A stretch of DNA of 64,000 nt from Polyangiaceae bacterium (GCA_033763455.1 JANRKO010000033.1:64001-128000); one strand, 5' to 3'. Shown: positions 46,895-63,779, numbered from the stretch's first letter. Translations and numbers: made by a program. Notes: generated by a model not told the origin, from the sequence alone.

Positions 46895-46984
46895 ACCACC
46901 GCACCTCGGGGTGATAGGAGGCGCTCCGCTTGCTGCGGGTTTTGCATCTGCGGCAACTGAGTTGAAGGCAGGAAAACCAAGGAC

Positions 46985-47488
46985 ATGGGCCTGATGAGCG
47001 TTGATCTGAGCAGCTTGAAAATCGGCTTCGTGGGGCACGTCGTCGGTGCCGGCGGTGTCACGGTGGATTTCGACCGAACCGTGCTGGTGCAAATGGTTCT
47101 CTTCACGCTGCTGCTGCTCGTGTTGGAGCCCTTGCTGTTCCGACCGATGCTGAAAGTGTTTGCCCTACGGGAGGCGAAGACAGAGGGAGCGCGCGACGAG
47201 GCTCGTGAGCTTCAGGAACGCGCAGGTGAGCTTCTGCGGAAGTACGAAAGCGAACTGCTCCGCGTCAACCAGGTTGCCACCGAAGAGCGCGAGCGCCTCC
47301 GCGCCGAAACCACCAAGCTGGAAGCCCAAATCCTCGAAGAGGGGCGCCAGAGCACCGCTAAGCTGATTGAGGAGGGGCGAGCCCGCGTGCGACAGGAGAT
47401 CGATCGAATTCAGTTCGATTTGGGGCGCCAAACCGAACAAATCAGTCGCCAAGTCGCGGCTCAGGTTCTCGGCCGGGAGGTCAACTAA
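46985..47488 (+). CDS. atpF: ATP synthase F0 subunit b'
   Basis: D.T...Q...F..L...L..LLF.P......RE TM segment plus coiled coil ending VLGREV; first gene of the atp cluster. Confidence 0.88.
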   Translation: MGLMSVDLSSLKIGFVGHVVGAGGVTVDFDRTVLVQMVLFTLLLLVLEPLLFRPMLKVFALREAKTEGARDEARELQERAGELLRKYESELLRVNQVATEERERLRAETTKLEAQILEEGRQSTAKLIEEGRARVRQEIDRIQFDLGRQTEQISRQVAAQVLGREVN

Positions 47489-47489
47489 A

Positions 47490-48233
47490 ATGGCTCTACT
47501 TCGGCACATTGCGCTCGCGGGCCTGCTTCTTAGCCTTGCGCCATTCAACGTGCGCTCGGCGTACGCGGATGAAGCAGCTGCTGAGGGCGAACACGCGGCG
47601 GGCGAACACGGCGCCTCCGAACACGGCGAAGGACATCACGCTCCGAGCTTTGACGACGTAAACTGGTTCTACGGCTTCATCGGCGAAGACGCGGACGTTG
47701 AGCCCAACTTGCTGTGGCGCAAGCCAGGAATGCCCATTCCCGTGGGAGTCCTCGTGCTCAACACCGGGATCCTGTTCTTCTTGATCTACAAATTTGGCAA
47801 GCAACCCATCGCAAAAGCGCTGAAAGATCGCCGTGCCGGTATCGTCAAAGGTATCGAGGAAGCTGCCAAGATGAAGGCCGAAGCCGAAGCATCGTTCTTG
47901 GCCTACGAGCAAAAGCTGCAGCAGATTGACGCGCAGATCGAGCGCGTCCGCCGCGAGATGCGCGAAATGGGCGAAGCCGAACGCGAGCGCATCCTTGAAG
48001 AGGCGCGTGAACGCCGGCAGCGGATGGAGCGTGAAGCTAAAGTGCTGATTGATCAGGAAATCAAGGCAGCTCGCGAGCGGCTTCACCGTGAAGTTGTTGA
48101 AAATGCCTTCCGCACGGCACTCACAACTCTCGAGAAGCAGGTCACCAGTGCGGATCACCAGCGCATCGGCCAAGCCTACATCACCACCGTGGCGCAAGCC
48201 TCCGCGGTGTTCTCGAAAGGAGGCCAATCATGA
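47490..48233 (+). CDS. atpF: ATP synthase F0 subunit b with N-terminal signal peptide and His/Glu-rich extension
   Basis: GGAGG before ATG 47490; LN..IL...I.KFGK.PI...L..R...I...I plus coiled coil. Confidence 0.88.
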   Translation: MALLRHIALAGLLLSLAPFNVRSAYADEAAAEGEHAAGEHGASEHGEGHHAPSFDDVNWFYGFIGEDADVEPNLLWRKPGMPIPVGVLVLNTGILFFLIYKFGKQPIAKALKDRRAGIVKGIEEAAKMKAEAEASFLAYEQKLQQIDAQIERVRREMREMGEAERERILEEARERRQRMEREAKVLIDQEIKAARERLHREVVENAFRTALTTLEKQVTSADHQRIGQAYITTVAQASAVFSKGGQS

Positions 48234-48775
48234 GCCTCTCTAAAGTCGCTGACCGCTACGCCCAAGCCATCTTCGACCTGGGCCAAGAGCGCGGGCAACT
48301 CCCGCAAATGACGCGGGAACTTCGCAGTTTTTCAGATGCATTCATGCAGAGCGAGAGCCTCCGGGCCACGCTTGCGAACCCGCTTGTAACCGCAGCCCAG
48401 CGCCAATCCGTGTTGGTAACGCTCGCCGCAAAGCTGGGGCTAAGCCAGCTGACGTTGAACGCGATTCGAGTGGTCGCGCTGCGGCACCGGCTAGACGCGC
48501 TCGACGACATTGCGCAGCGCCTGGAACAACTCGCTGACACGCAAGCGGGCATCGTTCGCGCGACGGTCACCAGTGCGGCGGCGCTTGCTCCTGATTTCTT
48601 GGCTCAGCTTACCCGAGCCTTGGAAACCTCAACGGGCAAGAAAGTGCTCGTCGAAAGCCACGTTGACCCGAGCCTGATCGCCGGAATCACGACCCGAATC
48701 CGCGATAACACCATCGATGGCAGCCTCAAGGGGCGCCTATCCGATCTTCAGAAAAAGCTACTTCAGGCGTCCTAA
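48230..48775 (+). CDS. atpH: ATP synthase F1 subunit delta
   Basis: A.RYA.A, L.NP, V.SA..L, VDPSLIAG and IDGSL...L. Confidence 0.95.
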   Translation: MSLSKVADRYAQAIFDLGQERGQLPQMTRELRSFSDAFMQSESLRATLANPLVTAAQRQSVLVTLAAKLGLSQLTLNAIRVVALRHRLDALDDIAQRLEQLADTQAGIVRATVTSAAALAPDFLAQLTRALETSTGKKVLVESHVDPSLIAGITTRIRDNTIDGSLKGRLSDLQKKLLQAS

Positions 48776-48805
48776 CCGCGCCCCCAACCTACCGGAATAC
48801 TTATC

Positions 48806-50485
48806 ATGCAGCTCAGCGCCGACGAAATCTCATCGATCATCAAGCAACAGATCCAAAACTTCGATCAGACCGCTCTGGTCACCGAAACGGGCACGGTGCT
48901 CACCAGCGGTGACGGTATCGCACGCGTACACGGCTTGAGTGCCGCTATGGCTGGTGAGCTTGTGGAGTTCGCTGGGGGTATCTACGGGCTTGTGCTCAAC
49001 CTTGAGCAGGACAACGTGGGCGTTGCAGTGCTCGGTGAGTCTCGCGAAATCAAAGAGGGCGACCCAGTCAAGCGTACGGGACGCATCGCTGACATCGCGG
49101 TTGGCGATGCCATTTTGGGTCGCGTTGTGAACGCGCTCGGGCAGCCCATTGATGGCAAGGGCCCTATCGAAAGCAAGGATCGCCGACGCATCGAGGTAAA
49201 GGCTCCGGGCATCATCGCTCGCCAGTCTGTGAAAGAGCCGATGCAAACCGGGTTGAAAGCCATCGACGCAATGATTCCCGTGGGTCGCGGGCAGCGCGAG
49301 CTCATCATTGGGGACCGCCAAACCGGCAAAACGGCTATCGCCATCGACACCATTATCAATCAGAAGGGCAAAGGCGTTTACTGCGTCTATGTCGCCATCG
49401 GGCAAAAGGCCTCCACCGTAGCTCAGCTCGTCGATAAGCTGCGCGCGGCAGGAGCGCTTGAGTACACCACGGTCGTTGTCGCAACGGCCACCGAAACCGC
49501 GCCGCTGCAATTCCTGGCTCCGTACACCGGCGTCACGATCGGCGAATTTTTCCGAGACACAGGGCGCCACGCGCTTTGCATCTACGACGATCTCTCCAAG
49601 CAAGCCGTCGCTTATCGCCAGCTCTCGTTGCTACTGCGACGTCCCCCGGGTCGCGAAGCTTACCCCGGTGACGTTTTCTACATTCACTCCCGCCTGCTTG
49701 AGCGCGCCGCCAAGATGGCTGAGCGCTGGTTCGTGGTGGCTAAGGGCACGAGCGTAAAGGCCGGAGATCCGGACTTCGTAGGCGTAGACGGCAAAGCGCA
49801 CATTGGCAGCGAAGGCAAAGAAGGCGCCGAGAAAGCCCTCGCAGCACGGGCAGATAAGGACAACCTAGAGGTCGCCAAAGATCCGTTCTCTGGTGGTTCA
49901 CTTACAGCGCTGCCGATTGTTGAAACCCAGGCCGGCGACGTTTCAGCCTACATCCCCACCAACGTAATCTCGATCACGGACGGACAGATCTTCCTGGAAA
50001 GCGACCTTTTTTACTCGGGCGTGCGTCCCGCGATTAACGTGGGCATTTCCGTAAGCCGCGTGGGTGGCAACGCCCAAATCAAGGCCATGAAGAAGATCTC
50101 GGGCACCCTTCGCCTCGATCTCGCTCAGTACCGCGAAAAAGCAGCTTTTGCTCAGTTCGCGAGCGACCTCGATGCGGCTACGCGAGCGCAGTTGGAACGC
50201 GGGCAAAGGCTCGTCGAGTTGCTGAAGCAGGGGCAGTACCAGCCGCTCTCGATCGAGAAGCAGGTAGTAATCATCTACGCAGGTACTCAAGGGTTCGTGG
50301 ACAAAGTGCCGGTTGAAGCCCTTCGAGCGTACGAAGCCGAGCTCTACCTCTACCTCGAAGAGAAGCACTCAAGCGTGCTCCCTAGCATCGCCGACAAACG
50401 CGAAATCACCGATAGCATTAAGAAAGACCTCGACGCCGCGCTCAAGGCGTTCACCGAAAACTTCGTCGCCAGCCGGAAAGCGTAA
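48806..50485 (+). CDS. atpA: ATP synthase F1 subunit alpha (with internal insertion)
   Basis: [38 protein letters not shown] and [11 protein letters not shown]. Confidence 0.98.
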
Positions 50486-50487
50486 TC

Positions 50488-51405
50488 GTGGCAAATCTTA
50501 AGGACATTCGCCGTCGCATCGCCAGCGTCAAATCGACGCAGAAGATCACACGCGCCATGAAAATGGTGGCTGGTGCTCGCTTGAATCGGGCACAGCAGCG
50601 CATCAGTGCGATACGTCCTTACGCGGTTGCAACGGGAAAAGTTCTTGCTGAAGTCACCAACCGTAGCGCCAGCGATGACGACACTTCGGCGACGGATGTC
50701 GATCATCCGCTCTTGGCTCGCCGTCCCGAAAAGAGCCTGCTCTTTGTCGTCATCACGAGCGATCGCGGTCTGTGCGGCGCCTTCAACTCGAGCATTCTGC
50801 GCCACGCCGAGCGCCTCTGGCACGAGAACGAAGCCCGCGGCGTTAAAGTGCAATTCGCGGTCATTGGACGCAAAGGGCGCGAGTACCTCTCTCGCAGAGG
50901 AGCGCCCATCCTCCAGGTGTTTGAGAAGGTGTGGGATGATCTTTCGCTTGAACAGGCGCGAAATGTTGGACGCGTAGTTCTCCGCCCGCTAGTGAGCGGC
51001 GAGGTGGACGCGGTGTACCTGGTGTACAACGAATTCAAGAGCGCAATGACTCAACGGGTGACCGCTGAAGCGCTGTTCCCTCTGGCTCAAGATACGAGCG
51101 CCTCGCCAAGCGCTCCCGACGGCCATGGTGAAGCACCTCCGGAGCTGGATTTCCTGTTCGAGCCCAACAAGGAAGCTTTGCTTGAGCGTTTGGTCCCCAT
51201 GTACGTGGAGATCACCCTACTGCGAGCCCTTCTGGAATCGATGGCTTCCGAACTGGGAGCCCGCATGACGGCGATGGATTCAGCGACCAAAAACGCCGCT
51301 GACATGATCGCCAAGCTTACGCTCAAATACAACCGAGCTCGCCAGGCCGCCATCACCACAGAGCTCATGGAAATCATCGGCGGCGCCGAAGCTCTGAATT
51401 CTTAG
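50488..51405 (+). CDS. atpG: ATP synthase F1 subunit gamma
   Basis: RI.SV.STQKITRAMKMV, SDRGLCG.FN, SE..ARM.AM..AT.NA and RQAAITTEL.EI..GA.AL. Confidence 0.98.
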   Translation: MANLKDIRRRIASVKSTQKITRAMKMVAGARLNRAQQRISAIRPYAVATGKVLAEVTNRSASDDDTSATDVDHPLLARRPEKSLLFVVITSDRGLCGAFNSSILRHAERLWHENEARGVKVQFAVIGRKGREYLSRRGAPILQVFEKVWDDLSLEQARNVGRVVLRPLVSGEVDAVYLVYNEFKSAMTQRVTAEALFPLAQDTSASPSAPDGHGEAPPELDFLFEPNKEALLERLVPMYVEITLLRALLESMASELGARMTAMDSATKNAADMIAKLTLKYNRARQAAITTELMEIIGGAEALNS

Positions 51406-51546: not shown

Positions 51547-52602
51547 ATGGGTCGAGCGATGTATCGACGCTCACACGCGACTCTTGCTGTGCTGGTCGCC
51601 TTGGGACTGCTCGCGTGGACGTTCCGGCATGCCCAACTCGATCAAATAGCTGCGCTTTTGGCGCGGCTCCATCCAGCTGCCCTTCCACTCGTTCTAGTTC
51701 CGTACGCTCTTGCAGTAAGCAGTGAGGCATCTGGCTGGCGAAGCGCCATCCTCCGTCTGGGACATAGAGTGCCATTTTGGAGGCTTTTGGGAGTCCGTCT
51801 GAAGACGGAGGCTCTTTCACTCACTCTGCCGCTGGGACAGCTCGTGTGCGATTCTGCCACACCCGCCTTACTCCAACGCGAAGGGCTCCCGCTTGCGGCC
51901 GGAGTTGCTGCAGTGGGGGTCCGCAAGTACCTCCTCGCGCTATCGCAGGCGTTGTTTTTATTGTTCGCATTTTTTCTCGGTCATTCAGCACTAACAAGAG
52001 CATCGCAGAAGCTTGTAGGTTCGGCTGTTTTGCAGTGGTTGCCACTCCTGGCCGCCTTAATGCTGGGAGCTGTGGCCATTGTGTTGGGTTCGGCGCTGAG
52101 CCGAGGTGCGCTCGCTACTTTCACCCTGAGGGTGTTGTTGCGAGTTCCGAGTGAAGCTTTTCGACGCGTTCTATTCCCCGCTTCGCCGCATTTCTCTGAA
52201 ACCGACAGTACTCTGCAGCTATTCTTCCGTCGCCGAGTCAGCCCAACCCAGGTGGCACGCATTATGCTTGTGGGGGTTATGGAGTCCGTTGAGACCTGGG
52301 TGATCTTGAGCCTTCTCAATGCTGACTTGAGCTTATCGGACGTGATCGGCTTCGAGGTTCTCCTCAGCTTCATGCGCAGCCTCGTTATCCTAGTTCCGGC
52401 GGGGCTTGGCATTCAGGACCTGGGTTATCTCGCCTTCTTCAGGGCACTCGGCGTAGCCGATCCCGTCTCCACAGCCGCTGCCTTTAGCCTACTGAAGCGA
52501 GGCAAGGAGCTTTTCTGGGCCGGCATTGGTTACGGGCTTTTTGCACTGCGACGCCCTTTCCCGTTAACGCCCTCCAACTTTAGGACCAACTCGACCTTAT
52601 GA
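51547..52602 (+). CDS. Lysylphosphatidylglycerol-synthase TM region (MprF-N/HpnL-like) flippase-type membrane protein
   Basis: Multiple TM segments; VPAGLGIQD.G and A.SLL.R..EL.W motifs. Confidence 0.8.
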   Translation: MGRAMYRRSHATLAVLVALGLLAWTFRHAQLDQIAALLARLHPAALPLVLVPYALAVSSEASGWRSAILRLGHRVPFWRLLGVRLKTEALSLTLPLGQLVCDSATPALLQREGLPLAAGVAAVGVRKYLLALSQALFLLFAFFLGHSALTRASQKLVGSAVLQWLPLLAALMLGAVAIVLGSALSRGALATFTLRVLLRVPSEAFRRVLFPASPHFSETDSTLQLFFRRRVSPTQVARIMLVGVMESVETWVILSLLNADLSLSDVIGFEVLLSFMRSLVILVPAGLGIQDLGYLAFFRALGVADPVSTAAAFSLLKRGKELFWAGIGYGLFALRRPFPLTPSNFRTNSTL

Positions 52603-53588
52603 CCCTCCGCGTTCTTTACATCTGCGGCTCCCCCAACCAGACCACGCAAATGCACCAAATATCGAGCTTTTTGCCCGAAGCGGAAGCCAATTTTACACCC
52701 TATTATGGCGGCCCAATCCTAGATTTCGCCAAGAAGGCGCGGTTGTGCGAGTTTTCCATCGCGGGCACCAAGCTGACGCGGCGATGCCTCGACTACCTTG
52801 AGGCCCACTCGCTTAAGCTGGACATTGGAGGTCGCAGGGGGCCGTATGATCTGGTCCTCACTTGTTCAGACGTTGTGGTGCCAGACAACATTCTCGGGGT
52901 ACCCATCGTGCTAGTGCAGGAAGGGATCCTGGATCCGAATAACGTGCTGGGAGAATTAGTGCGAAAATTCCCAGTGCTTCCACGCTGGATCGCGGGAACC
53001 TCCACCACCGGCATGAGCCGCGCATATTCGCGCTTCTGCGTCGCGAGTGCAGGCTATAAGCGCTACTTCGCAAGGCGCGGTGCCCCGGAAGAGCGTCTGG
53101 TTGTTACCGGCATCCCCAACTTCGACAACTGCGCGCGTTACCTCACCAATGACTTTCCACATCGTGGCTATGCATTGGTGTGCACGTCGGATGCACGGGA
53201 GACGCTGAAGCTCGACAAACGACGTGAATTTGTGGAGTGGGCAGTTGAAAAGGCGGGAGGGCGGCCACTGATCTTCAAACTCCACCCGAACGAAAATCTT
53301 CGGCGTGCAACCCGGGAGCTCAAACGCTGGGTGCCCGATGCGCTCGTTTTCGAAAGCGGCGACACCAACGCCATGATTGCCAACGCGGAGGTCCTGATTA
53401 CCCAGTATTCTACCGTCGTGTTCGTGGGCCTGGCGCTCGGGAAGGAGTGTTATTCGTACCACCCTATGGAGGAATTAGTGGAGCTCGTGCCGGAGCAAAA
53501 CGGTGAGGCCGCCAAACGGATTGCCGACGTTTGCCGAGACCTTATGGCGGCAAGAGGCGCTGACTTGCGCGACGGAGTTGCCGCGTGA
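52599..53588 (+). CDS. GT-B-like transferase (sialyl-/CDP-glycerol-transferase or UDP-GlcNAc 2-epimerase-like fold)
   Basis: QEG, VVTG.P.FD, FKLHPNE and LITQYSTV...GL.LGK. Confidence 0.65.
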   Translation: MTLRVLYICGSPNQTTQMHQISSFLPEAEANFTPYYGGPILDFAKKARLCEFSIAGTKLTRRCLDYLEAHSLKLDIGGRRGPYDLVLTCSDVVVPDNILGVPIVLVQEGILDPNNVLGELVRKFPVLPRWIAGTSTTGMSRAYSRFCVASAGYKRYFARRGAPEERLVVTGIPNFDNCARYLTNDFPHRGYALVCTSDARETLKLDKRREFVEWAVEKAGGRPLIFKLHPNENLRRATRELKRWVPDALVFESGDTNAMIANAEVLITQYSTVVFVGLALGKECYSYHPMEELVELVPEQNGEAAKRIADVCRDLMAARGADLRDGVAA

Positions 53589-54412
53589 GGACCCTCGTGA
53601 TCGTACAGGCCCGGCTCGGGTCCTCTCGCCTGCCAGGGAAAGTGCTGTTACCACTCCTCGGGGAGCCAGTCTTGATTCGAATGTTGGACCGGATTCGAGC
53701 GGCTAAAAGCGCATTCGACGTACTGGTTGCTACCACTTTGGAACCCGAAGACGCGGCCATCGTGAGCCTGTGCCAAGAACGCAAAATTGCCGTATTTCGC
53801 GGCAATACCGCAGATCTTTTGGATCGTCACTATCGCGCAGCTTTGCAATTCCAGGCCGAGCTCGTCGTTAAGATCCCGTCCGACTGTCCACTGGTAGATC
53901 CGGCAGCACTTGATTGCGTGCTTGGGTACTTTCTAGAGCACAAGCGCGAGTTCGACTTCGTCAGCAACCTCCAACCCCAGAGCTGGCCCGACGGCAACGA
54001 CGTTGAGATCATGACGTTCGAAGCCCTTAGGACCGCATGGCTCGAAGCCGGGAGGCCGTTTGAGCGCGAACACACGACTCCCTTCATTTGGGATAATCCG
54101 GAGCGCTTTCGTATCGGAAATGTGCTCTACCCGGGCGGGCGAGACTACTCGGCAAGCCACCGTTTCGTATTAGATTACGAAGCCGACTACCAGTTCATCC
54201 AAGCTATTTTTGAGCGTCTTCTCCCGGAGTTTGGCCCCGCGTTTTCATTGTTACAGATCTTAGATTTGCTGAAGCGAGAGCCCGACCTTCTGGCGCTCAA
54301 CCAAGCCCATCTCGGCGTGTGTTGGCAACAAAAGCACCGGCAAGAACTCAAAACTCTCCACGCCGTTCAATCGAGTCCATCGAGCACAGGAACACGCCAT
54401 GCCGCCGGCTAA
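53585..54412 (+). CDS. spsF: SpsF-like cytidylyltransferase
   Basis: IVQARLGSSRLPGKVL, D.L.R, DCPL.D, P.G.DVE, REH.T and LDY..D. Confidence 0.9.
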   Translation: MRTLVIVQARLGSSRLPGKVLLPLLGEPVLIRMLDRIRAAKSAFDVLVATTLEPEDAAIVSLCQERKIAVFRGNTADLLDRHYRAALQFQAELVVKIPSDCPLVDPAALDCVLGYFLEHKREFDFVSNLQPQSWPDGNDVEIMTFEALRTAWLEAGRPFEREHTTPFIWDNPERFRIGNVLYPGGRDYSASHRFVLDYEADYQFIQAIFERLLPEFGPAFSLLQILDLLKREPDLLALNQAHLGVCWQQKHRQELKTLHAVQSSPSSTGTRHAAG

Positions 54413-55700
54413 CGAACTCGCTTTACCTCAAATCTCCGAGTCCAACGCCTGGTATGCGCGAGCTCGCGCAGTAATCCCCGGGGCGACACAAACGCTGGCC
54501 AAAGGAGCCTCTCAGTATGTGGATGGCGTGGCGCCCAAGTTCCTACAACGAGGAAAAGGCTGTCGGGTGTGGGATGTTGATGGCAACGAATTCATCGATC
54601 TCACGATGGCCGTGGGGCCCCTTTCCCTTGGCTACTGTTACGACAAAGTGGACGAAGCAATCCGTCGTCAGCTCGAAGATGGTATCACCTTCTCCCTCGT
54701 CCATCCCTTGGAGGTGGAGGTGGCTGAGCTTCTTAAAGGTCACATTCCAGGCGCCGAAATGGTGCGGTTCAGCAAAACGGGCTGCGACGTGACGAGTGCG
54801 GCGGTAAGGCTTGCGCGGGCCTTCACCGGCAGAAAAGTGGTCGCGTGTTCGGGCTACCACGGTTGGCATGACTGGTACATCGGCACCACCCCGCGAAACC
54901 TCGGAGTGCCGAGCGAGGTGCAAGCTCTCACACGCAAGTTTGCTTACAACGATCTCTCTTCCGTCAGGGCTATTCTGGACCAAGATGTTGCGGCCATCAT
55001 TCTTGAGCCAGTGCTGTTTGAGGAACCGCGGGACGGATTTCTGCAGGAGCTTCGCCAACTCTGCACGCAGAACGGAACACTGCTCGTCTTCGACGAAATG
55101 TGGACAGGCTTCCGCTTAGGCCTTGGAGGGGCTCAGGCATACTTCGATGTCGGAGCGGACCTAGCTTGTTTCTCCAAGGCAGTCGCCAATGGCATGCCCT
55201 TGAGCGTTCTCAGCGGTCGCCGAGAGATAATGAGTTTGCTAGAAAATGATGTTTTCTTCTACACCACGTTTGGCGGCGAAGCACTTTCGCTGGCGGCAGC
55301 AAAAGCAACTCTGCAGGAGCTCAGGGACCAACGTGTACCTCTGCACCTCGCTGAGATGGGCGCTAAGCTGCAGCAAGGTTACAATCAACTTGCAGAGAAG
55401 CACGAGCTACCATTCACACGCTGCGTAGGATTGCCCTGTCGAACACTTGTTACGTTCGATGAAAAAGTCGTCGACCCGCTGCTTGCCAAATCTCTGCTCC
55501 AGCAAGAACTTATCCGCCATGGGGTGTTGTGGACCGGGTTTCACAACATGAGCTTTTCTCACCAGCACTCCGATGTAGAACGCATTCTCGCCGGCTACGA
55601 CTCCGCCCTTCCGGTGCTCGCCCGCGCCGTCCAAAAGAACACGCTGCGGAGTGAAATCCAAGGCACGCCGGTGCAGCCGGTATTTCGGAAAACCCAATAA
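54399..55700 (+). CDS. Class III PLP aminotransferase (glutamate-1-semialdehyde aminomutase-like sugar aminotransferase)
   Basis: G.GC.VWDVDGNE.ID, RF.KTG, YHGWHDW, FDEMWTGFR, FSKAVANG and TFGG. Confidence 0.9.
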   Translation: MPPANELALPQISESNAWYARARAVIPGATQTLAKGASQYVDGVAPKFLQRGKGCRVWDVDGNEFIDLTMAVGPLSLGYCYDKVDEAIRRQLEDGITFSLVHPLEVEVAELLKGHIPGAEMVRFSKTGCDVTSAAVRLARAFTGRKVVACSGYHGWHDWYIGTTPRNLGVPSEVQALTRKFAYNDLSSVRAILDQDVAAIILEPVLFEEPRDGFLQELRQLCTQNGTLLVFDEMWTGFRLGLGGAQAYFDVGADLACFSKAVANGMPLSVLSGRREIMSLLENDVFFYTTFGGEALSLAAAKATLQELRDQRVPLHLAEMGAKLQQGYNQLAEKHELPFTRCVGLPCRTLVTFDEKVVDPLLAKSLLQQELIRHGVLWTGFHNMSFSHQHSDVERILAGYDSALPVLARAVQKNTLRSEIQGTPVQPVFRKTQ

Positions 55701-55770
55701 CACTGTCGCAAGAGGTTTCGCCGCTCTGTCACCCAAGTCCGAGCAGGTCGTAACGAGTCTGTCATCAGCC

Positions 55771-56580
55771 ATGTTTGATCTCACACACAAGATCGCCGTA
55801 GTCACCGGAGCCCTCGGGCTACTTGGGCGCGAGCACTGTTTGGCCCTCTTGAGCAACGGGGCCACGGTAGTTGTTGCCGATTTGGACGGCGCCGCGGCCC
55901 GCAGCCTTGCTGGAGAACTGGCAGAAGACTCTGAAGGCCGCGTCCTTGGCCTTGGCGTGGACGTGGGGGCAAAAGCATCTGTTGATGAAATGACGCGTGA
56001 AATCCTCGGGCGTTTCCAACGAGTTGACGTGCTGGTGAACAACGCAGCCGTTGACGACAAGGTGGAATCCCCGGCGCTGGCACTAGAGCAAAGCCGCTTC
56101 GAGAATTATCCGCTTGAGTCCTGGGAACGTCTCATCCGCGTGAACCTGACGGGAGCCTTCCTATGCGCTCAAAGTCTTGCTCCCGCGATGGCTCGCCGCG
56201 GTAGCGGGAGCATCATCAACGTGGCTTCCACTTATGGAATCGTGGCTCCCAATCAAGATCTTTACGTCGATCAACAAGGCCGACAGCAGTTCTTCAAGTC
56301 ACCGGCCTACCCGGTGTCAAAAGCCGGCCTTTTGCACCTCACGCGCTACCTCGCAGCCTACTATGGGCAATCTGGAGTGCGGGCGAACTCGCTTTCCCCG
56401 GGGGGCGTAGCGAACGGACAAAGCTCGGACTTTCAATCCGAATATGCCAGCCGAGTGCCCCTTAGGCGCATGGCGAACAAGTCAGACTACCGAGGCGCGT
56501 TGGTATTCCTCGCCAGCGATGAATCCGCCTATATGACCGGCGCAAACTTGGTAGTGGACGGTGGTTGGACAGCATGGTGA
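55771..56580 (+). CDS. SDR oxidoreductase (PtmA-like sugar dehydrogenase)
   Basis: TGALGLLG, NNAA, S.YGIVAP...Y, YPVSK, SPGG and VDGG.TAW. Confidence 0.9.
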   Translation: MFDLTHKIAVVTGALGLLGREHCLALLSNGATVVVADLDGAAARSLAGELAEDSEGRVLGLGVDVGAKASVDEMTREILGRFQRVDVLVNNAAVDDKVESPALALEQSRFENYPLESWERLIRVNLTGAFLCAQSLAPAMARRGSGSIINVASTYGIVAPNQDLYVDQQGRQQFFKSPAYPVSKAGLLHLTRYLAAYYGQSGVRANSLSPGGVANGQSSDFQSEYASRVPLRRMANKSDYRGALVFLASDESAYMTGANLVVDGGWTAW

Positions 56581-57098
56581 GAACGCTCCCACAAGTTCAA
56601 TTGAGCGAACGCGCTCGCAGAATTCGCCTACTAGTGAGTGACGTAGATGGCGTACTCACGCCAGCACAAGTTTACTACAGCGAACGCGGCGAAGAGCTCA
56701 AGCGATTCAGCCTCCGCGACGGAATGGGTACTGAGCTCCTACGCGTGGCGGGCATAGAAACGGCCTATTTTACGCGTGAAAACTGCCCAATTGCGCTCCG
56801 GCGGGCGCAGAAGCTGAAGCTTGCCCACCTGTGGCTCGGTGTGCACGACAAGGCTCGCGCGTTGCCGGAGCTTCTGCTTTCAGCGCGCTACCGACTCGGC
56901 GAAGTGGCCTACATGGGCGACGACGTGAATGATCTTGAAGCCATGGAGCTCGTGGGTGAAGTGGGGCTCACGGGAGCTCCGAGCGACGCCGTGGCTAGCG
57001 TGTTGGCCGCAGCTCACAAGGTAACAGCAAAAAGTGGCGGCCAAGGCTGTTTCCGAGAGTTCGCGGACTGGATTTTAGCCACTCGCCAGGAGGCATAG
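56574..57098 (+). CDS. kdsC: KdsC/YrbI-family HAD phosphatase (KDO-8-P/KDN-9-P phosphatase)
   Basis: DVDGVLT, K.F..RDG.G, YMGDDVND and GG.G.FRE. Confidence 0.9.
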   Translation: MVRTLPQVQLSERARRIRLLVSDVDGVLTPAQVYYSERGEELKRFSLRDGMGTELLRVAGIETAYFTRENCPIALRRAQKLKLAHLWLGVHDKARALPELLLSARYRLGEVAYMGDDVNDLEAMELVGEVGLTGAPSDAVASVLAAAHKVTAKSGGQGCFREFADWILATRQEA

Positions 57099-57102
57099 AC
57101 TT

Positions 57103-58065
57103 ATGACAACGCACCCAATGTTCGATGAAATGACACGACATTCCACGCTGATGACGCGTTTACCGGAAACCGGAGACACGCAAGCTCGAGTAAAAATCGG
57201 CAACCGCGATGTCGGTGAGGGGGAGCCCGTCTATTTGATTGCGGAGATCGGCATTAATCACAACGGCGACCTCGATATCGCCAAACGCCTCATTTCTGGC
57301 GCCAAGCGCGCCGGTTGCGACGCCGTCAAGTTCCAGAAGCGAACCCCGGAAATCTGCGTACCCAAAAGCCAGTGGGATCTGATGCGAGATACGCCCTGGG
57401 GGCGCCTAACGTACATCGATTACAAGCGACGCATCGAGTTCGGCGAAGCGGAATACCGGGAGATCGACCGATTTTGCCGACGAGAAGGCATCGATTGGTT
57501 TGCCTCCTGTTGGGACCCGGAGTCTGTAGAGTTTATCGAGAAATTTGAGCCCCCATGTTACAAGATCGCATCGGCCTCAATAACGGACATTGAACTTCTG
57601 CAGAAGCTCAAGTCCATAGGTCGCCCCGCGATACTTTCCACTGGTATGTCCACCTCGGCCGAAGTGCACACTGCAGTTCAAACTCTGGGCATGGAGGGCC
57701 TCTTGATCGCGCACGCAACCTCCACGTACCCGTGCCCGCTAGAAGAGCTCAATCTACGAATGATTCAGACTCTGAAGCTCCGCTACCCGAACTGTCCGGT
57801 GGGGTACTCGGGGCATGAAACAGGGCTTGCTCCTACGTGGGCTGCGGTGGCTATGGGGGCCACGTTTGTCGAACGTCACATCACGCTCGACCGTGCCATG
57901 TGGGGAACAGACCACGCGGCGTCCGTAGAGCTGAGCGGCCTTCAAAGGTTGGTTGCTCAGGTGCGAGACATCGAAAAAGCTTTCGGCGATGGCATCAAGT
58001 GCGTTTACCCGAGTGAGGTTCCCTACCGCGAGAAATTGCGACGAGTAGCCTCCACGGAAGCCTGA
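57103..58065 (+). CDS. neuB: NeuB/SpsE-family nonulosonate (-9-phosphate) synthase, TIM barrel only
   Basis: IAEIGINHNG, DAVKFQKR, KIASA, STGM, GYSGHE and ERHITL...GTDH; ends without the antifreeze-like domain. Confidence 0.92.
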   Translation: MTTHPMFDEMTRHSTLMTRLPETGDTQARVKIGNRDVGEGEPVYLIAEIGINHNGDLDIAKRLISGAKRAGCDAVKFQKRTPEICVPKSQWDLMRDTPWGRLTYIDYKRRIEFGEAEYREIDRFCRREGIDWFASCWDPESVEFIEKFEPPCYKIASASITDIELLQKLKSIGRPAILSTGMSTSAEVHTAVQTLGMEGLLIAHATSTYPCPLEELNLRMIQTLKLRYPNCPVGYSGHETGLAPTWAAVAMGATFVERHITLDRAMWGTDHAASVELSGLQRLVAQVRDIEKAFGDGIKCVYPSEVPYREKLRRVASTEA

Positions 58066-58078
58066 AAAGAGAAAGTGG

Positions 58079-58873
58079 GTGAGCTCTACGGCCTTCATCA
58101 CATTCGGCTCGATCACGCTAGGCGCAGCGCTTCTCGTCGGGTTGGAGCGTTTTCGCCCGTACGAGCCGAGGCAACGTTTCTTAAGGCCGGGCCTCGGAAC
58201 GGACCTCTTCTTGTATGCGATCGCGCAAAGCTATGTCTTGAGTTTGGTCATTGCCGGCATCATCGCTGGGATCAGCGCGAACGTGAGCTGGTTCGACGGA
58301 GGTTTGGTGAACTCGTGGCCTCTCTGGGTGCAGCTCGCTTTCTTCTTCGTGGTGCACGATTTCTATATTTACTGGTTTCACCGGCTGCAACACAAATCGG
58401 ACACTCTCTGGCGCCTTCACGAAGCGCACCATTCTGTGAAAGATGTGGATTGGCTCTCCGGGGCACGCTCCCACGCACTCGAGATCTTGATCAATCAAAC
58501 GATAGAATTTGCCCCGATGCTTCTTTTGGGGGCAGCGCCAGAAGTCATTGTAGCGAAAGGCGTCCTGGACGCCCTTTGGGGGATGTACATTCATTCAAAC
58601 ATCGACGTACGATCCGGCGTGCTGCAGTACGTTATTAACGGCCCGGAAATGCACCGCTGGCATCACGCTCGGGAAATTAAAGCGCCGGGCATGAACTTCG
58701 GCACCAAGTTGGCGATCTGGGATTGGCTCTTCGGAACGGCTTTCTTGCCGCCGGAAAAGCCCCAAGCTTATGGCCTGCCCGACATTGACTACCCAAAAGA
58801 AGGCTGGGCCGCCTACTTCTTGCACCATGTGCACTCGTTCCGGCGTTCGACGCCTCCCCAGCTACCGCCCTAA
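58079..58873 (+). CDS. Sterol desaturase/fatty-acid hydroxylase family membrane diiron enzyme
   Basis: His boxes HRLQH, HEAHH, HSN and HRWHH; NFG....WD.LFGT. Confidence 0.92.
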   Translation: MSSTAFITFGSITLGAALLVGLERFRPYEPRQRFLRPGLGTDLFLYAIAQSYVLSLVIAGIIAGISANVSWFDGGLVNSWPLWVQLAFFFVVHDFYIYWFHRLQHKSDTLWRLHEAHHSVKDVDWLSGARSHALEILINQTIEFAPMLLLGAAPEVIVAKGVLDALWGMYIHSNIDVRSGVLQYVINGPEMHRWHHAREIKAPGMNFGTKLAIWDWLFGTAFLPPEKPQAYGLPDIDYPKEGWAAYFLHHVHSFRRSTPPQLPP

Positions 58874-60802
58874 AGCACTTCGAACACGCTGAACGAGATT
58901 CGCGGCGTCGAGACCGTGATGCTGCAATACTTCCTGATTTCGACCACACGCGGGCACGGATTCAATCCCGATGTTGTGCACCCGAACCGCGTCCAAGCCG
59001 AGGGCCGCCACGGTGGCTCCTATTAGCTGCCCCTGACCGCCCAATACATAGTGATTATCAAGCGTAAAGACATGTCGACGAGAACCCACGACGCGGGCGA
59101 GCCAAGCTTCATCGATGCGGTTCAGCCACGGTAGCGATACGACTCCCACCTGAAGCCCATGCTGAGCCTCTAGCGCCAGCGACGCATTCCAAGCTTCCGC
59201 GAGAAGTACTGGTCCGTAGGCAATGATCACGGCGTCCGCCCCTTCGCGAAGTTCGGTGCCTTTGCCCAATTCGAGCGCACTTTCGGGCAACTGGAACGGG
59301 ATTTCACAAGGAATGCTCACGAGGCGTAGCCACACGCTCGACGGTGCTCGCTCAATCGCCCACTCCAACGCACGGGCCACCTCCGCTTCCGTGGACGGCT
59401 CAAGCAAAATGAGCCCCGGGATAGCACCCACAGCAGAGATATCCCGCACAGATTGGTGGGAGTGCCCAGGGCCAGCCGGCAAGAGCCCCGCGAGCGATGC
59501 TGTGTAGATAACTCGCGAGTGTTCGGTGGCGTTGTTGTAAATCTGCTCATTGGCTCGAGTGGAGAGAAAACACGCGAAGGAATGGCAAATCGGTAGAAAG
59601 CCCTCACGTGCGAGGCTTCCAGCCTGGCTCACCATGTCCATCTCGGCGATGCCGCATTCTATGAAGCGTTCAGGGTACGCGTCGCGTGCCGGTAACTGTC
59701 CCGTATCCACCAGCAGATCCGCATCCATCACCACTAAGTTGGGAACCTTGCCCATCTGGGAAAGCAGCGCTCGCGAGTAGGCCCCGATCAAGCTCTCCTT
59801 GGGCCCAGTCGTAGGGACCGCGGCACTCTCTTGTGATTCAAAATGTAAGCGAGAAACCCCTAGAGCGTCGCATTGGCGATGAAGGCTTGCGATGAGCTCC
59901 TCTGCGGCACGTTGGTAATTTTCGGAGTCAGGTGCCCCAGAATGAAAGCGATAAAATGACACATCTGAGTCGAGGCTCGTGTGCTCCATGAACGAGACAC
60001 CGCGGCCCTTGATCGTGTGCGCTATGATTACCTGAGGTCTATCGGTTACGGCACGAGCGGCCGCTAGTATCTCGCCGAGCGACCAGTAATCGTGCCCATC
60101 CACCGAAAAGACGGCCCAACCGAAAGCCTCGAACTTTTTGACAAGATCACCAAGCTCGCTCGTCTTCGCGACGAAGGTGTCGCTTTGAAGCTTATTGTGG
60201 TCGACAATAACAGTAATCTCGGAAAGCTTGTGGTTCGCTGCCGACACCAACGATTCCCAGATCTGCCCCTCCTGAAGCTCGCCATCTCCCGTTAACACGT
60301 AGATCCTCCCTGATCGCTCCTTTTGACGGCGCGCCCAAGCCATGCCCTTGGCCTTGGAAATGCCCATCCCGAGGGATCCAGTATTGGCCACCATCCCCGG
60401 TGTTCCAACGTCTGGATGGCCTGGCAAACCTTTGAGTACCCTCAACTGGTGCAACAAGGCGAAGGGCAACAACCCGAGGCCAAGCCGCACGGCGTACAGA
60501 CCAGGGGCGTCATGACCCTTGGAAGAAAAGTAGACGTTCGCATTTGGCGCCGGGATACCAGTAGGGCTGAGTTCTAACTCATTCAGATGGAGCCAGGTGA
60601 CGATATCAAGGCTTGAGAAAGAACTGCCCAGATGCCCCGAGCCGGCTCGGGCTATCATGTACAGCACGTTCAGGCGGCAAGCATCCGCGAACAACTGCGC
60701 GCGCCGCTCGGGCTCAATCTTGAGGCTCAAAATCTGCTCAAATTGTGCCAACGGAACCCAAACTAGGTTACCGGCAACAACTTCACCCACTAGGTCGCCC
60801 AT
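58862..60802 (-). CDS. Transketolase-family ThDP enzyme (single chain)
   Basis: SGH.G.S.S, SKGH, L.GHP, TGSLG.G, GDGELQEG...N, HT.KG.G, GIAE..M and GHSHQ. Confidence 0.92.
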   Translation of the reverse strand: MGDLVGEVVAGNLVWVPLAQFEQILSLKIEPERRAQLFADACRLNVLYMIARAGSGHLGSSFSSLDIVTWLHLNELELSPTGIPAPNANVYFSSKGHDAPGLYAVRLGLGLLPFALLHQLRVLKGLPGHPDVGTPGMVANTGSLGMGISKAKGMAWARRQKERSGRIYVLTGDGELQEGQIWESLVSAANHKLSEITVIVDHNKLQSDTFVAKTSELGDLVKKFEAFGWAVFSVDGHDYWSLGEILAAARAVTDRPQVIIAHTIKGRGVSFMEHTSLDSDVSFYRFHSGAPDSENYQRAAEELIASLHRQCDALGVSRLHFESQESAAVPTTGPKESLIGAYSRALLSQMGKVPNLVVMDADLLVDTGQLPARDAYPERFIECGIAEMDMVSQAGSLAREGFLPICHSFACFLSTRANEQIYNNATEHSRVIYTASLAGLLPAGPGHSHQSVRDISAVGAIPGLILLEPSTEAEVARALEWAIERAPSSVWLRLVSIPCEIPFQLPESALELGKGTELREGADAVIIAYGPVLLAEAWNASLALEAQHGLQVGVVSLPWLNRIDEAWLARVVGSRRHVFTLDNHYVLGGQGQLIGATVAALGLDAVRVHNIGIESVPACGRNQEVLQHHGLDAANLVQRVRSALGR

Positions 60803-61046
60803 AGTTCTAACGGTTACTCCACAACAACGTTGTTGATGCGGCGCCAGCGCTGTGGCGATTGGGCAACGCAGTGAGCTGGCGTACTTGGAGCTTGCGCTGA
60901 GGAAGCATCTACGGAGGAGAGTCGCACCTAGCTGGGGTCATTACCGTCACGGTTCGGTCACTTCGACGGAGCGTGAACAAGCCGGAGACCCGGGCGCAGT
61001 CGGGCGATAACGCCGCCTGATGCAAGTCCGCAAGAATTGTACGTTT

Positions 61047-61062
61047 TGGCACGACTACTGCT
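61047..61062 (+). promoter_or_regulatory. Sigma-54 (-24/-12) promoter
   Basis: TGGCACGactaCTGCT, GG-N10-GC, about 75 bp before ATG 61136. Confidence 0.65.
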
Positions 61063-61135
61063 AATCGGCGAGGAGGCTCCGGCTTGGCCCCACCGCCCGA
61101 GCTACTCGTTCGGTGAGCCAAAGGCTCCCGTATCT

Positions 61136-61585
61136 ATGACTTTGCTACTGCTCCTTCCGCTCTTTTTGCAGGCGCTGGCAATGTTCTTCGACGAGTTCGT
61201 ATTTCATCGGGCGCGCGGGTTGCCAAGGTGGGAGCGTCTGGGGCACCCGCTTGATACTTTGACAGTGGCTGTTTGCTATGGATGGCTCGTGTCAACGCCG
61301 CCGACGCGTGCCCACGCCGTTGCGGTGTACGTTGTACTTTGTGCCTTTTCGTGCCTGTTCATTACGAAAGACGAGTTCGTGCACGCGCGCCTATGCAAGC
61401 CCGCCGAGGCGTGGCTTCACGCGGTATTGTTTGTACTTCATCCAGCGGTATTCTTGGCCCTTGGAATTATCTGGATGCGCGGAGGCAACGAGTGGATTCC
61501 AAAGGCCGTGCTTGGTGCAACGTTGGCTATGATGATGTACCAGCTCATTTACTGGAGCCCGCGCTGGCACTGGGGTGACAAGTGA
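61136..61585 (+). CDS. Small multi-TM membrane protein with conserved DE..H motifs
   Basis: FDEF.FH..R.LP.WER.GHPLD, KDE.VH...C...E.WLH..LF..HP; several hydrophobic segments. Confidence 0.75.
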   Translation: MTLLLLLPLFLQALAMFFDEFVFHRARGLPRWERLGHPLDTLTVAVCYGWLVSTPPTRAHAVAVYVVLCAFSCLFITKDEFVHARLCKPAEAWLHAVLFVLHPAVFLALGIIWMRGGNEWIPKAVLGATLAMMMYQLIYWSPRWHWGDK

Positions 61586-61624
61586 GAATGTCTTGCTTGG
61601 CGTGAGTGTTTCACGCGCCACCAC

Positions 61625-61654
61625 GCCTCAGTCGCGCTGATTTGCCTCAGTCGC
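61625..61654. repeat. Direct repeat gcctcagtcgc x2 (19-bp period), candidate enhancer (UAS)
   Basis: Copies at 61625-61635 and 61644-61654, about 105-135 bp upstream of the second sigma-54 promoter. Confidence 0.45.
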
Positions 61655-61757
61655 CCCAATATCCACACCCGTCATCGTTTGCCGAGGGTGCCTACGCCAC
61701 TCTGTTTTCCCTTCCTCCCCCGCTAACAAACCGTTGTGCGCGGCCAGGCCAGCATGA

Positions 61758-61773
61758 GGGCACGTAAGTTGCA
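61758..61773 (+). promoter_or_regulatory. Sigma-54 (-24/-12) promoter
   Basis: GGGCACGtaagTTGCA, GG-N10-GC, 50 bp before the PKS ATG. Confidence 0.65.
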
Positions 61774-61823
61774 GCAACATTCGCAGAAGCGCGCCCCGCG
61801 CCCCGCGTCGCGACTAGCTCACC

Positions 61824-62993
61824 ATGCTCACCCTAACCAATTTCTCAATGCAGTCACCGCGTTTCCAAATTTCTCAGGAACGAGCGCTCGCTTGGCTCAC
61901 CGACGTGCACGCTCAGTCCGAATCCACGAAGCGAACGCTGTCTTCCGAGCAAAGGGCCGATTTCGCAGCTCGATTCAGTAAACTGGTGAAGCGTTGCGCC
62001 TGCGGCCCAGACAAGATTGGTGCGCGCGGTCACTCGGTCGATCTCGCCTCGAAGGAGTCCGAAGATCACGCGCTTTACGACGTGGGTCGCCACCCGCAGG
62101 GGCTTGGAACGGTAGCGCGATCGCGTCTTTTCGCCGAGGTCGTCGATTCGTACTTCGAGACCGAGTACGCGGAAGAATCGACGGCGCCGAGCGAACTCAT
62201 TCATGTCACTTGTACCGGTTACGTGGCACCCAGCGGCGCGCAGCGGTTAGTCGCTAAAAAAGACTGGGGCAGTGCTACACGTGTAACGCATGCGTACCAT
62301 ATGGGTTGCTATGCCGCTCTCCCAGCTATCCGAATCGCGGCGGGCAGCTTGGGTTTACCGGCTGCGCTAGGTCCGGACAACGTTCTCCGACGCGCAGACA
62401 TCGTGCACACCGAGCTCTGCACGCTCCACCTCGATCCGAGTGATCATTCCATGGAGCAGTGCGTTGTCCAGAGCCTCTTCGGTGACGGGTTTATTCGCTA
62501 CTCGGTGTTCGACGGGAGCCACATCCCTGGGCTCTCTATCCTATCCCTGAGCGAAGACACACTCCCGGATTCGACAGGCTCCATGGGCTGGAGCGTGGGA
62601 GATTTTGGCATGCGCATGACGTTAGCACGCGACGTGCCTGAGAAGATCGCGGCCTCGCTACGTCCATTCGTCACCGCTCTGTTCCGCAAAGCCAACATCA
62701 GCGTTGCCGATAATCTTGGCAGCACTGTGTTCGCTGTGCATCCGGGTGGCCCCAAAATTATTGATCACGTTCGCGACACGCTTGCGCTAAGGAACGAACA
62801 ACTTCAGACGAGTAGGAACGTGCTGTTCGAACACGGCAATATGTCTTCAGCCACCTTGCCGCATGTATGGATGCGGATCGTTGGCGCCCCCGAAATCAGC
62901 GTGGGCACTTTGGTGCTAAGCCTCGCATTTGGGCCAGGCCTTACCGTGTGCGGTGGTCTGTTTCGCAAAACCAGAGGCAGCACCGCGCCTTAA
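61824..62993 (+). CDS. Type III polyketide synthase (chalcone synthase-like)
   Basis: VTCTG, catalytic Cys HMGCYAA, ELC, LFGDG, His VHPGG, Asn GNMSS and AFGPGLT. Confidence 0.95.
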   Translation: MLTLTNFSMQSPRFQISQERALAWLTDVHAQSESTKRTLSSEQRADFAARFSKLVKRCACGPDKIGARGHSVDLASKESEDHALYDVGRHPQGLGTVARSRLFAEVVDSYFETEYAEESTAPSELIHVTCTGYVAPSGAQRLVAKKDWGSATRVTHAYHMGCYAALPAIRIAAGSLGLPAALGPDNVLRRADIVHTELCTLHLDPSDHSMEQCVVQSLFGDGFIRYSVFDGSHIPGLSILSLSEDTLPDSTGSMGWSVGDFGMRMTLARDVPEKIAASLRPFVTALFRKANISVADNLGSTVFAVHPGGPKIIDHVRDTLALRNEQLQTSRNVLFEHGNMSSATLPHVWMRIVGAPEISVGTLVLSLAFGPGLTVCGGLFRKTRGSTAP

Positions 62994-63005
62994 GATGCTA
63001 GCAAC

Positions 63006-63779
63006 ATGACCGAAAATCCGACGCACCTAACGCCCGTGAACAACGACATCTACGCTACCCTCGGAGAGCGTTGGTACAGCGCCGAAGATGACCCTGTGGC
63101 GCTCTTGCGGGCGGAATCAAGGCTGCGCAACCCGTGGGTGGCCCAAGAAATCCGGCGCAAGCTTGGCGTCTCTTCCGCGGATATTTTGGACATCGGTTGC
63201 GGTGGCGGGTTCCTTGCTAATTACCTCGGCTCACTGGGTCATCGCGTCACCGGCCTAGACGCTTCGAACGATGCGCTGGCGGTGGCTGCCAGCCATGATT
63301 CCGGACAGACTGTTCACTACCAACAAGGTGACGCCCTACGCCTTCCCTTTGCCGACGCAACTTTTGACGTGGTATGCGCCATGGATTTTCTGGAGCACGT
63401 GGAAAACCCTGAGCAGGCGATCGCAGAGGCCGCGCGCGTACTCAGGCCGTCAGGCTTGTTCTTCTTTCATACATTCAACCGCAACCTGCTGTGCTGGCTC
63501 GTAGTGATCAAAGGGGTTGAGTGGTTTGTACGCAACACTCCCCAACGCATGCACATTTTGCGACTATTTTTGAAACCTGCAGAGGTTATTGCCTGGTGCG
63601 CCGAGCGCGGCCTCCACTCCGTTCAGGTCCGAGGGACACGGCCACAGTTTGGCTGGGCATTCTTTAGGATGTTGTTCACGCGGCGAGTTTCCGCAGAATT
63701 TAGCTTCGCTTTCACGCCTTCAACTCGACTTGGATATAGCGGAGTTGCAACGAAAACCTCAGCGGAGCCGGACGCGTGA
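63006..63779 (+). CDS. ubiG: UbiG-like SAM-dependent O-methyltransferase
   Basis: LDIGCGGG.L, DFLEHV, L.P.G..F..T.NR and H....F.KP.E. Confidence 0.8.
   Translation: MTENPTHLTPVNNDIYATLGERWYSAEDDPVALLRAESRLRNPWVAQEIRRKLGVSSADILDIGCGGGFLANYLGSLGHRVTGLDASNDALAVAASHDSGQTVHYQQGDALRLPFADATFDVVCAMDFLEHVENPEQAIAEAARVLRPSGLFFFHTFNRNLLCWLVVIKGVEWFVRNTPQRMHILRLFLKPAEVIAWCAERGLHSVQVRGTRPQFGWAFFRMLFTRRVSAEFSFAFTPSTRLGYSGVATKTSAEPDA

Follow-up and report, generated by a model that had tools for sequence, protein, structure and literature searches.

Which product is made by the group of sugar and lipid genes that begins at position 51547 of the analyzed Polyangiaceae bacterium DNA, and to which molecule is it attached? 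The whole analyzed stretch, called the window here, comprises 64,000 nucleotides (GCA_033763455.1, JANRKO010000033.1:64001-128000). Gene content, gene order and conservation, the fold and motifs of the encoded proteins and their co-occurrence were determined directly. The analysis confirmed a self-contained cassette of nine genes, consisting of eight open reading frames (ORFs) on the plus strand and a convergent transketolase gene. Judged from the sequences, this cassette probably makes an amino-ulosonyl lipid, with ceramide as the most likely acceptor, and the predicted product is a ganglioside-like zwitterionic glycolipid. For annotation of the window genes, we applied Pfam and NCBIfam profile searches with cut-offs. 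The nine genes are:

51547..52602, plus strand: LPG_synthase_TM/HpnL-like membrane protein, predicted lipid flippase (PF03706, E 2e-24)
52599..53588, plus strand: glycosyltransferase B (GT-B) protein of an unnamed family, predicted cytidine monophosphate (CMP)-ulosonate:lipid (ceramide) transferase (GT-B model, invariant motifs, weak Pfam matches)
53585..54412, plus strand: SpsF-type cytidylyltransferase, predicted CMP-ulosonate synthetase (PF02348, CTP_transf_3; closest solved relative 6OEW, E 2e-38)
54399..55700, plus strand: class III (glutamate-1-semialdehyde aminomutase-like) pyridoxal phosphate aminotransferase (PF00202, Aminotran_3; best NCBIfam match PRK06209, 401 bits at a cut-off of 486)
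55771..56580, plus strand: short-chain dehydrogenase/reductase (SDR) of the PtmA/ElaC type, predicted C8 oxidoreductase of a (CMP-)nonulosonate (best NCBIfam match PRK09186, below cut-off)
56574..57098, plus strand: KdsC-type haloacid dehalogenase (HAD) phosphatase, predicted ulosonate-phosphate phosphatase (TIGR01670, above cut-off)
57103..58065, plus strand: short NeuB without SAF domain, predicted synthase for phosphoenolpyruvate (PEP) and a sugar phosphate, of the 2-keto-3-deoxynonulosonic acid (KDN) 9-phosphate type (PF03102)
58079..58873, plus strand: diiron enzyme of the fatty acid hydroxylase superfamily (OlsE-like), predicted lipid hydroxylase (PF04116, FA_hydroxylase; His boxes)
58862..60802, minus strand: transketolase-like thiamine diphosphate (ThDP) enzyme, dedicated to the cassette (located inside a duplicated block; a separate housekeeping TktA is encoded elsewhere in the genome, on contig C19)

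The eight plus-strand ORFs are connected by four overlaps of 4-14 nt and by gaps of 4, 13 and 70 nt, and the transketolase gene overlaps the 3' end of the hydroxylase gene by 12 nt. Promoter and terminator scans stayed at chance level (2 vs 3.3 and 10 vs 10.4). The original prediction, which covered positions 51547 to 58873, described a coupled run of eight genes, and all eight ORFs are indeed present on the plus strand with mostly short overlaps. Its family labels were borne out by the Pfam and NCBIfam matches. The absences it listed also hold for these eight proteins, none of which matched a DegT, dehydratase, acetyltransferase, Wzx or Wzy family. Its extent was too short, since it left out the core transketolase gene and the module reaches position 60802.

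A second complete copy of the nine genes was identified in the same genome with different flanks (G000:C62:35431-44745). All nine genes show 77-94% amino-acid identity to those of the window. The DNA match of 9,337 bp, with 80% nucleotide identity, stops at the cassette edges and thereby marks the boundaries of the module. Contig C62 has only three other long matches within the genome, which suggests that the second cassette is a paralog or was acquired and does not stem from a doubled bin. The window transferase is 89% identical to the C62 copy vs 74-75% to copies from the same genus, and the GT-B gene was detected in 9 of 61 related genomes. In a GTDB scan for this gene, the best 80 of 588 confirmed stretches were kept and classed, and 41 of these 80 loci, from five phyla, carry a window-type operon. 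The operon order is conserved in Myxococcota, in Bacteroidota/Ignavibacteria/Chlorobiales, in Acidobacteriota and in Gemmatimonadota, and it is usually [flippase]-GT-CTP transferase-transketolase-aminotransferase-SDR-HAD-NeuB-hydroxylase, with only one transferase. A chance arrangement is rejected because the block recurs on C62 and in other phyla. Transketolase genes are present in 38 of 38 untruncated operon loci. The synteny comparison suggested with the original prediction places the hydroxylase gene in 27 of the 29 operon loci whose sequence reaches past NeuB and shows the flippase gene immediately before the transferase gene in 19 of 41, so that both remain syntenic in homologous clusters. 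The operon was also found on a gammaproteobacterial plasmid of the cultured methanotroph Methylomagnum ishizawai (L194, NZ_AP019784.1). It shows no hydroxylase or flippase match there and is followed by lplT and by genes for OlsB- and OlsA-like acyltransferases. A window-type operon (L065, genome G092, from a family of 5 genomes) comes without an SPT match. It was not counted as belonging to a green sulfur bacterium, since its NCBI label Prosthecochloris vibrioformis is doubtful. No description of the cassette or of the transferase family was found in a literature search by title or abstract start, with most subscription papers outside its coverage.

The sugar is predicted to be built by NeuB, the HAD phosphatase and the cytidylyltransferase. 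NeuB profile matches end near residue 300-314 and no SAF domain was matched in this protein. Lys-Arg follows the conserved K-x-Q in 39 of 41 members of the NeuB clade vs 0 of 4 outgroup NeuBs, and this loop is discussed in PMC8208679. From PEP and a sugar phosphate without acetyl group, probably mannose-6-phosphate, NeuB would form a KDN-type precursor. The missing SAF domain and the Lys-Arg loop fit a non-acetylated substrate and, together with the linkage to the HAD gene, they point to mannose-6-phosphate. The HAD enzyme would then remove the phosphate from the ulosonate. It scores 126 bits against the KDN-9-phosphate phosphatase profile NF058599 (cut-off 180), which ties with 124.5 for KdsC. 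The SpsF-type enzyme would form the CMP-sugar. In Bacteroides thetaiotaomicron, the CMP-KDN pathway reportedly consists of a synthase, a HAD phosphatase and a CMP-transferase. The window resembles it with its NeuB-family synthase, KdsC-type phosphatase and cytidylyltransferase, but its phosphatase lies under the NF058599 cut-off, its cytidylyltransferase is SpsF-type, and tailoring, transferase and lipid genes are added.

The transferase is the central enzyme of the cassette. Its AlphaFold2 model shows a GT-B fold with a pLDDT of 90, and at least 5,992 homologues were found. When the transferase alignment was used as a profile against the PDB, nothing beyond a weak TagF-like match appeared. 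All of the 98 sequences compared keep Q107-E108-G109, H229-P230 and S271 unchanged. In bacterial sialyltransferases, D/E-D/E-G and HP motifs carry catalysis and CMP-sugar binding, according to PMC2169525. The window enzyme shares with the GT38, GT52 and GT80 sialyltransferases the GT-B fold, the HP and Ser motifs and a neighbouring CMP-sugar synthetase gene, and its acidic-Gly motif resembles theirs. It differs in its first motif, Q-E-G, in which the second acid and the Gly are kept and the first residue is changed, and in its predicted acceptor, a lipid instead of a glycan. No Pfam match to the GT38, GT52 or GT80 families was obtained in 25 members at E 0.1. We infer that the protein is a CMP-ulosonate transferase of an unnamed family, which would transfer the ulosonate of the CMP-sugar to a lipid. 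The flippase would move the resulting glycolipid, and the hydroxylase would add an oxygen-dependent decoration to the lipid.

Between sugar synthesis and transfer stands a tailoring module of SDR, transketolase and aminotransferase. The SDR scores 178 against PRK09186 (cut-off 255) and 130 against PtmA (cut-off 350). Its S-T-Y pattern with a long loop was matched in 27 of 34 related SDRs under a strict pattern. PMC13656337 describes ElaABC of Acinetobacter as responsible for C8 epimerisation of CMP-legionaminic acid, with ElaC as an SDR that carries S-x-Y, has an elongated loop ahead of its catalytic Tyr and is modelled as C8-keto reductase of the CMP-nonulosonate. The window SDR shares S-x-Y and the elongated loop with ElaC, which acts on a C8 keto group. 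In contrast to ElaABC, the window has no Gfo/Idh/MocA partner and encodes a transketolase and an aminotransferase instead. No chain named ElaC occurs among the 17 PDB matches of the SDR. At four other loci (L063, L073, L074 and L083, three of them labelled Poribacteria), Gfo/Idh/MocA and SDR genes lie near the transferase gene, in some cases with a NeuA-HAD fusion, NeuB and PAP2. This is a third, ElaABC-like module, perhaps with 8-epi-KDN as product. No bCerS-like gene was found in these four genomes.

The transketolase is of a fused type in the window, and most operon loci encode a split type. Since the split type is only about 30% identical to the fused one, the activity has been kept through replacement. 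Matches above 60% to the fused enzyme were found in 5 of 61 relatives, all of which also have the transferase. The ThDP-binding motif and the catalytic His/Glu are kept in both types. In the fused enzyme, the canonical Arg, His and Arg that bind the acceptor phosphate and the Asp that binds the 2-OH group are replaced. In 27 of 27 split enzymes, Asp is changed to Asn, the same phosphate-site His to Val or Ile and the first His to Phe, with the first Arg site aligned poorly. From these residues, the subfamily appears to work on a non-phosphorylated substrate. A role as supplier of fructose-6-phosphate was set lower, given the housekeeping TktA and the lost phosphate residues. An SPT-independent sphingoid route by transketolase and aminotransferase was also set lower, as the genome has an SPT-like gene. 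Glycolyl transfer, in analogy to Rif15 of rifamycin biosynthesis, was ranked lower as well.

Among the relatives of the window aminotransferase are C-6' aminotransferases of aminoglycosides, which act on sugars. KdnA of Shewanella (PDB 5K8B) was matched together with DegT-type enzymes and is not among the matches listed for the window enzyme (60 of 76). According to PMC5125639, KdnB is an iron-containing alcohol dehydrogenase (Fe-ADH), and the KdnA-type system makes 8-amino-3-deoxy-D-manno-octulosonic acid (Kdo8N), a sugar of lipopolysaccharide (LPS). The earlier description of KdnAB as a dehydrogenase with a class III aminotransferase is therefore corrected. The logic of oxidation followed by transamination on an ulosonate is shared, but Shewanella uses Fe-ADH and DegT-type enzymes and places Kdo8N on LPS, whereas the window encodes SDR and class III enzymes. 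A Chlorobiaceae Fe-ADH query gave no match at E 1e-25 in the window genome.

For the tailored sugar, the following route is preferred because the three enzymes form one chain and no extra gene is needed. The ElaC/PtmA-like SDR would oxidise C8 of the KDN-type sugar. This would create a terminal 8-oxo-9-hydroxy ketol, which is a transketolase donor group. The transketolase would clip C8-C9 and leave a C7 aldehyde, and the class III aminotransferase would aminate it to 7-amino-heptulosonate. This product is put forward tentatively, and the route leaves the fate of the two-carbon unit unexplained. 8-Amino-KDN is a doubtful alternative, the same applies to some other product, and neuraminic acid is still somewhat less likely.

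A related gene set was found in green sulfur bacteria. The transferase gene occurs in 118 of 138 genomes of the order of G107 (Chlorobiales by the label of L047), single-copy and in two cases as fragments. In all 16 Chlorobiales regions fetched, the flippase gene lies directly upstream of it. Fourteen of the 16, including all 14 Chlorobiaceae-type loci, have the order flippase-GT-NeuA-like-Fe-ADH-DegT (KdnA-like) aminotransferase. Of the other two regions, one has window-type genes and one has flippase and GT only. The Chlorobiaceae aminotransferase has Shewanella KdnA as its top PDB match (E 2.5e-75), and the Fe-ADH shows no particular closeness to KdnB. With Fe-ADH and the KdnA-like enzyme, these loci thus retain amination, by a module that is not homologous to that of the window. 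A gene resembling KdnA was found only in this Chlorobiaceae module. The HAD-NeuB pair is located at a separate locus in 5 of 5 Chlorobiales genomes, with NeuB 65-69% identical to that of the window. Transferase and NeuB are both present in 114 of the 138 genomes, both absent in 17 and found singly in 7, where one double-negative genome was derived from the tally and related genomes are not independent. The common core is thus flippase, transferase, CMP-synthetase, HAD and NeuB, and one tailoring module can be exchanged for another. Strong SPT-like and bCerS-like genes were detected in 5 of 5 Chlorobiales genomes checked.

An aminoglycosphingolipid was reported from Chlorobium limicola by Jensen, Knudsen and Olson in 1991 (doi 10.1007/BF00262993), as cited in PMC11762602. 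No assignment of genes for this lipid was found in the literature searched. The transferase is recorded under the names Chlorobium limicola, Chlorobaculum thiosulfatiphilum and Chlorobaculum tepidum (AAM72387.1 in the latter), and Chlorobaculum tepidum is genetically tractable. The Chlorobium limicola lipid, reportedly composed of ceramide and neuraminic acid, resembles the predicted product as an amino sugar on a sphingolipid, and green sulfur bacteria share flippase, transferase, HAD and NeuB with the window. The sets differ in that Chlorobiaceae use Fe-ADH, KdnA-like and NeuA-like enzymes, whereas the window has SDR, transketolase, class III aminotransferase, SpsF-type enzyme and hydroxylase.

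Ceramide as acceptor is suggested by the transferase loci outside the operon. Here 24 of 39 loci have spt-like (15), bCerS-like (21) or cerR-like (19) genes at a distance of up to about 10 kb; five of these 24 contributed to the bCerS profile. The genes spt, bCerS and cerR are those of the established ceramide pathway of bacteria and frequently lie in clusters (PMC11334938). In the window genome, spt-, bCerS- and cerR-like genes stand in a row (G000:C43:155702-159595), with 457 bits for the SPT candidate at a cut-off of 640. A bCerS-like gene was found in 36 of 41 operon genomes. An aminated ulosonic acid on a lipid rather than in O-antigen, as originally predicted, is thus supported by the syntenic hydroxylase and flippase and by the ceramide genes. 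Hydroxylation of this lipid, also part of the original prediction, is not required. Among five Chlorobiales genomes checked, only the one with the window-type module has a hydroxylase orthologue. None was found in the 4 of 4 Chlorobiaceae-type genomes tested, two without a match and two with matches of only 30-35%. Some sister-clade loci (L028, L031, L037, L043, L089 and others) combine a gene for a fusion of fatty acyl-AMP ligase, acyl carrier protein and SPT-like domains with ABC transporter and bCerS/CerR-like genes. These compact clusters come from Planctomycetota and Betaproteobacteria, and their transferase has Pro at the position of Asp198. Desulfobacterota versions (L069, L077) adjoin type I polyketide synthase and radical SAM genes.

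Several observations count against an amino-ulosonyl ceramide. None of the 41 operon loci has ceramide genes within about 10 kb, and 22 of 41 have no flippase gene. Five of the 41 operon genomes lack a bCerS-like match, and the four of these searched for SPT gave no strong match. Since bCerS-like genes occur in 60 of 61 relatives, their presence is non-discriminating in this order, and the bCerS label itself is presumed from gene position and a GNAT match. Within the ceramide-linked clade, 22 of 24 sequences carry Pro where the window has Asp198, and a true NeuB is present in only 9 of 30 genomes. This clade may use another donor and therefore speaks for the acceptor, not for the donor. The 17 Chlorobiales genomes without transferase and NeuB may form one clade. 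In addition, OlsB-like acyltransferase genes adjoin the operon in four loci (L053, L061, L070 and L194), and in L194 this gene is co-directional with lplT and an OlsA-like gene. These genes also speak for a different lipid, with the amino-ulosonate on diacylglycerol, an alkylglycerol ether or a hydroxylated ornithine-type aminolipid, or with its amine acylated by OlsB/OlsA-like enzymes to a new aminolipid. We regard this as unlikely overall. It is favoured by three Acidobacteriota genomes (G070, G072, G081) that carry the operon without a bCerS-like gene, a strong SPT match or any PF13444 match, and by OlsE as best NCBIfam match of the hydroxylase. However, the hydroxylase reaches only 127 bits at an OlsE cut-off of 475. 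PF13444 (OlsB-like) was not matched in the window genome or in three of four Chlorobiales genomes, with a marginal match in the fourth (E 3.5e-4). The window genome and these Chlorobiales genomes all have SPT- and bCerS-like genes, and genes of the transferase's sister clade are found in clusters for ceramide synthesis. The acceptor may differ by lineage.

Attachment of the sugar to LPS, as for Kdo8N in Shewanella, or to a protein or other surface glycan via genes elsewhere seems improbable. Two points favour it: the one KdnA-type system characterised so far produces a sugar of LPS (PMC5125639), and enzymes of the SpsF and PtmA/ElaC types have been described in gene clusters for surface glycans (PMC13656337). 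Our scan of the flanks of 28 loci covered 90 of 117 candidate ORFs; one was a GT9 gene, about 3 kb upstream at its locus, but no Wzx, Wzy or export family was found among the 90. The transferase is linked to flippase and lipid hydroxylase and, unlike variable antigen genes, is single-copy and near-universal in Chlorobiales. Three Sorangium genomes (L029, L030, L035) also carry the cassette; Sorangium cellulosum So ce56, a different strain from these, is reported to lack LPS. Most improbable is a role of the GT-B protein as a divergent form of the hydrolysing UDP-GlcNAc 2-epimerase (NeuC) which feeds NeuB, leaving the operon without its own transferase. The fold comparison weighs in its favour and against a transferase, because the best matches are NeuC/UDP-GlcNAc 2-epimerases (5ZLR, Z 18.1, root mean square deviation 3.8, 275 aligned), followed by TagF (Z 14.9) and polysialyltransferase 5WC6 (Z 13.3, root mean square deviation 4.6, 257 aligned). 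UniRef and other database names often call the family an epimerase, and PF02350 was matched in 21 of 25 members, weakly (12 bits at a cut-off of 30.6). Compared with the genome's own epimerase, however, the C-terminal His of H-R-x-E-N is aligned to Ser/Asp, D-S-G-G...E is replaced, and the N-terminal Arg and Lys were not seen in a comparison by eye. These are presumably substrate-binding or catalytic residues. Relatives with 52-59% identity are encoded among clustered ceramide genes, and most of their genomes lack NeuB. A NeuC product would need no oxidation or amination modules, and the window NeuB has no SAF domain.

Upstream of the cassette (46388-51405, plus strand), translations show a folK-like gene followed by genes for ATP synthase b/b', delta, alpha and gamma. 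This run ends 141 nt before the cassette, and beta and epsilon do not follow. Downstream (61037-63779, plus strand) are genes for a small membrane protein, a type III polyketide synthase and a UbiG-like methyltransferase, which are divergent from the transketolase gene and not present in the C62 copy. At other loci (L012, L013, L017, L036, L054, L056, L068), Ppx/GppA, CHAD, histidine phosphatase, metallophosphoesterase or glycerophosphodiester phosphodiesterase (GDPD) genes adjoin the operon, and a link to phosphate limitation is possible. Phosphate-scavenging or aminolipid genes flank about 10 loci, a hint of a role in phosphorus-free lipids.

Taken by its sequences, the amino-ulosonyl lipid cassette would work like a CMP-KDN route joined to KdnAB-type amination and a sialyltransferase, and by membership it falls outside KdnAB and NeuC. 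A bolder version would make the transferase a ganglioside synthase family of thousands acting on ceramide with two unrelated amination modules. One would clip 8-oxo-KDN to 7-amino-heptulosonate for a phosphorus-free zwitterionic sphingolipid, and the KdnAB-like pair of green sulfur bacteria would give the 1991 lipid. As a whole, this version is rather unlikely. The analysis brings to light a transketolase subfamily on an apparently non-phosphorylated substrate. If the predicted lipid is confirmed, candidate genes would be available for the orphan lipid of green sulfur bacteria, and lipidomics would gain a head group to look for. The at least 5,992 proteins now labelled hypothetical or epimerase would form a new CMP-ulosonate transferase family. 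Bacteria of several phyla would then be de novo producers of sphingolipids with a sialic-acid-like character, which are mostly associated with animals.

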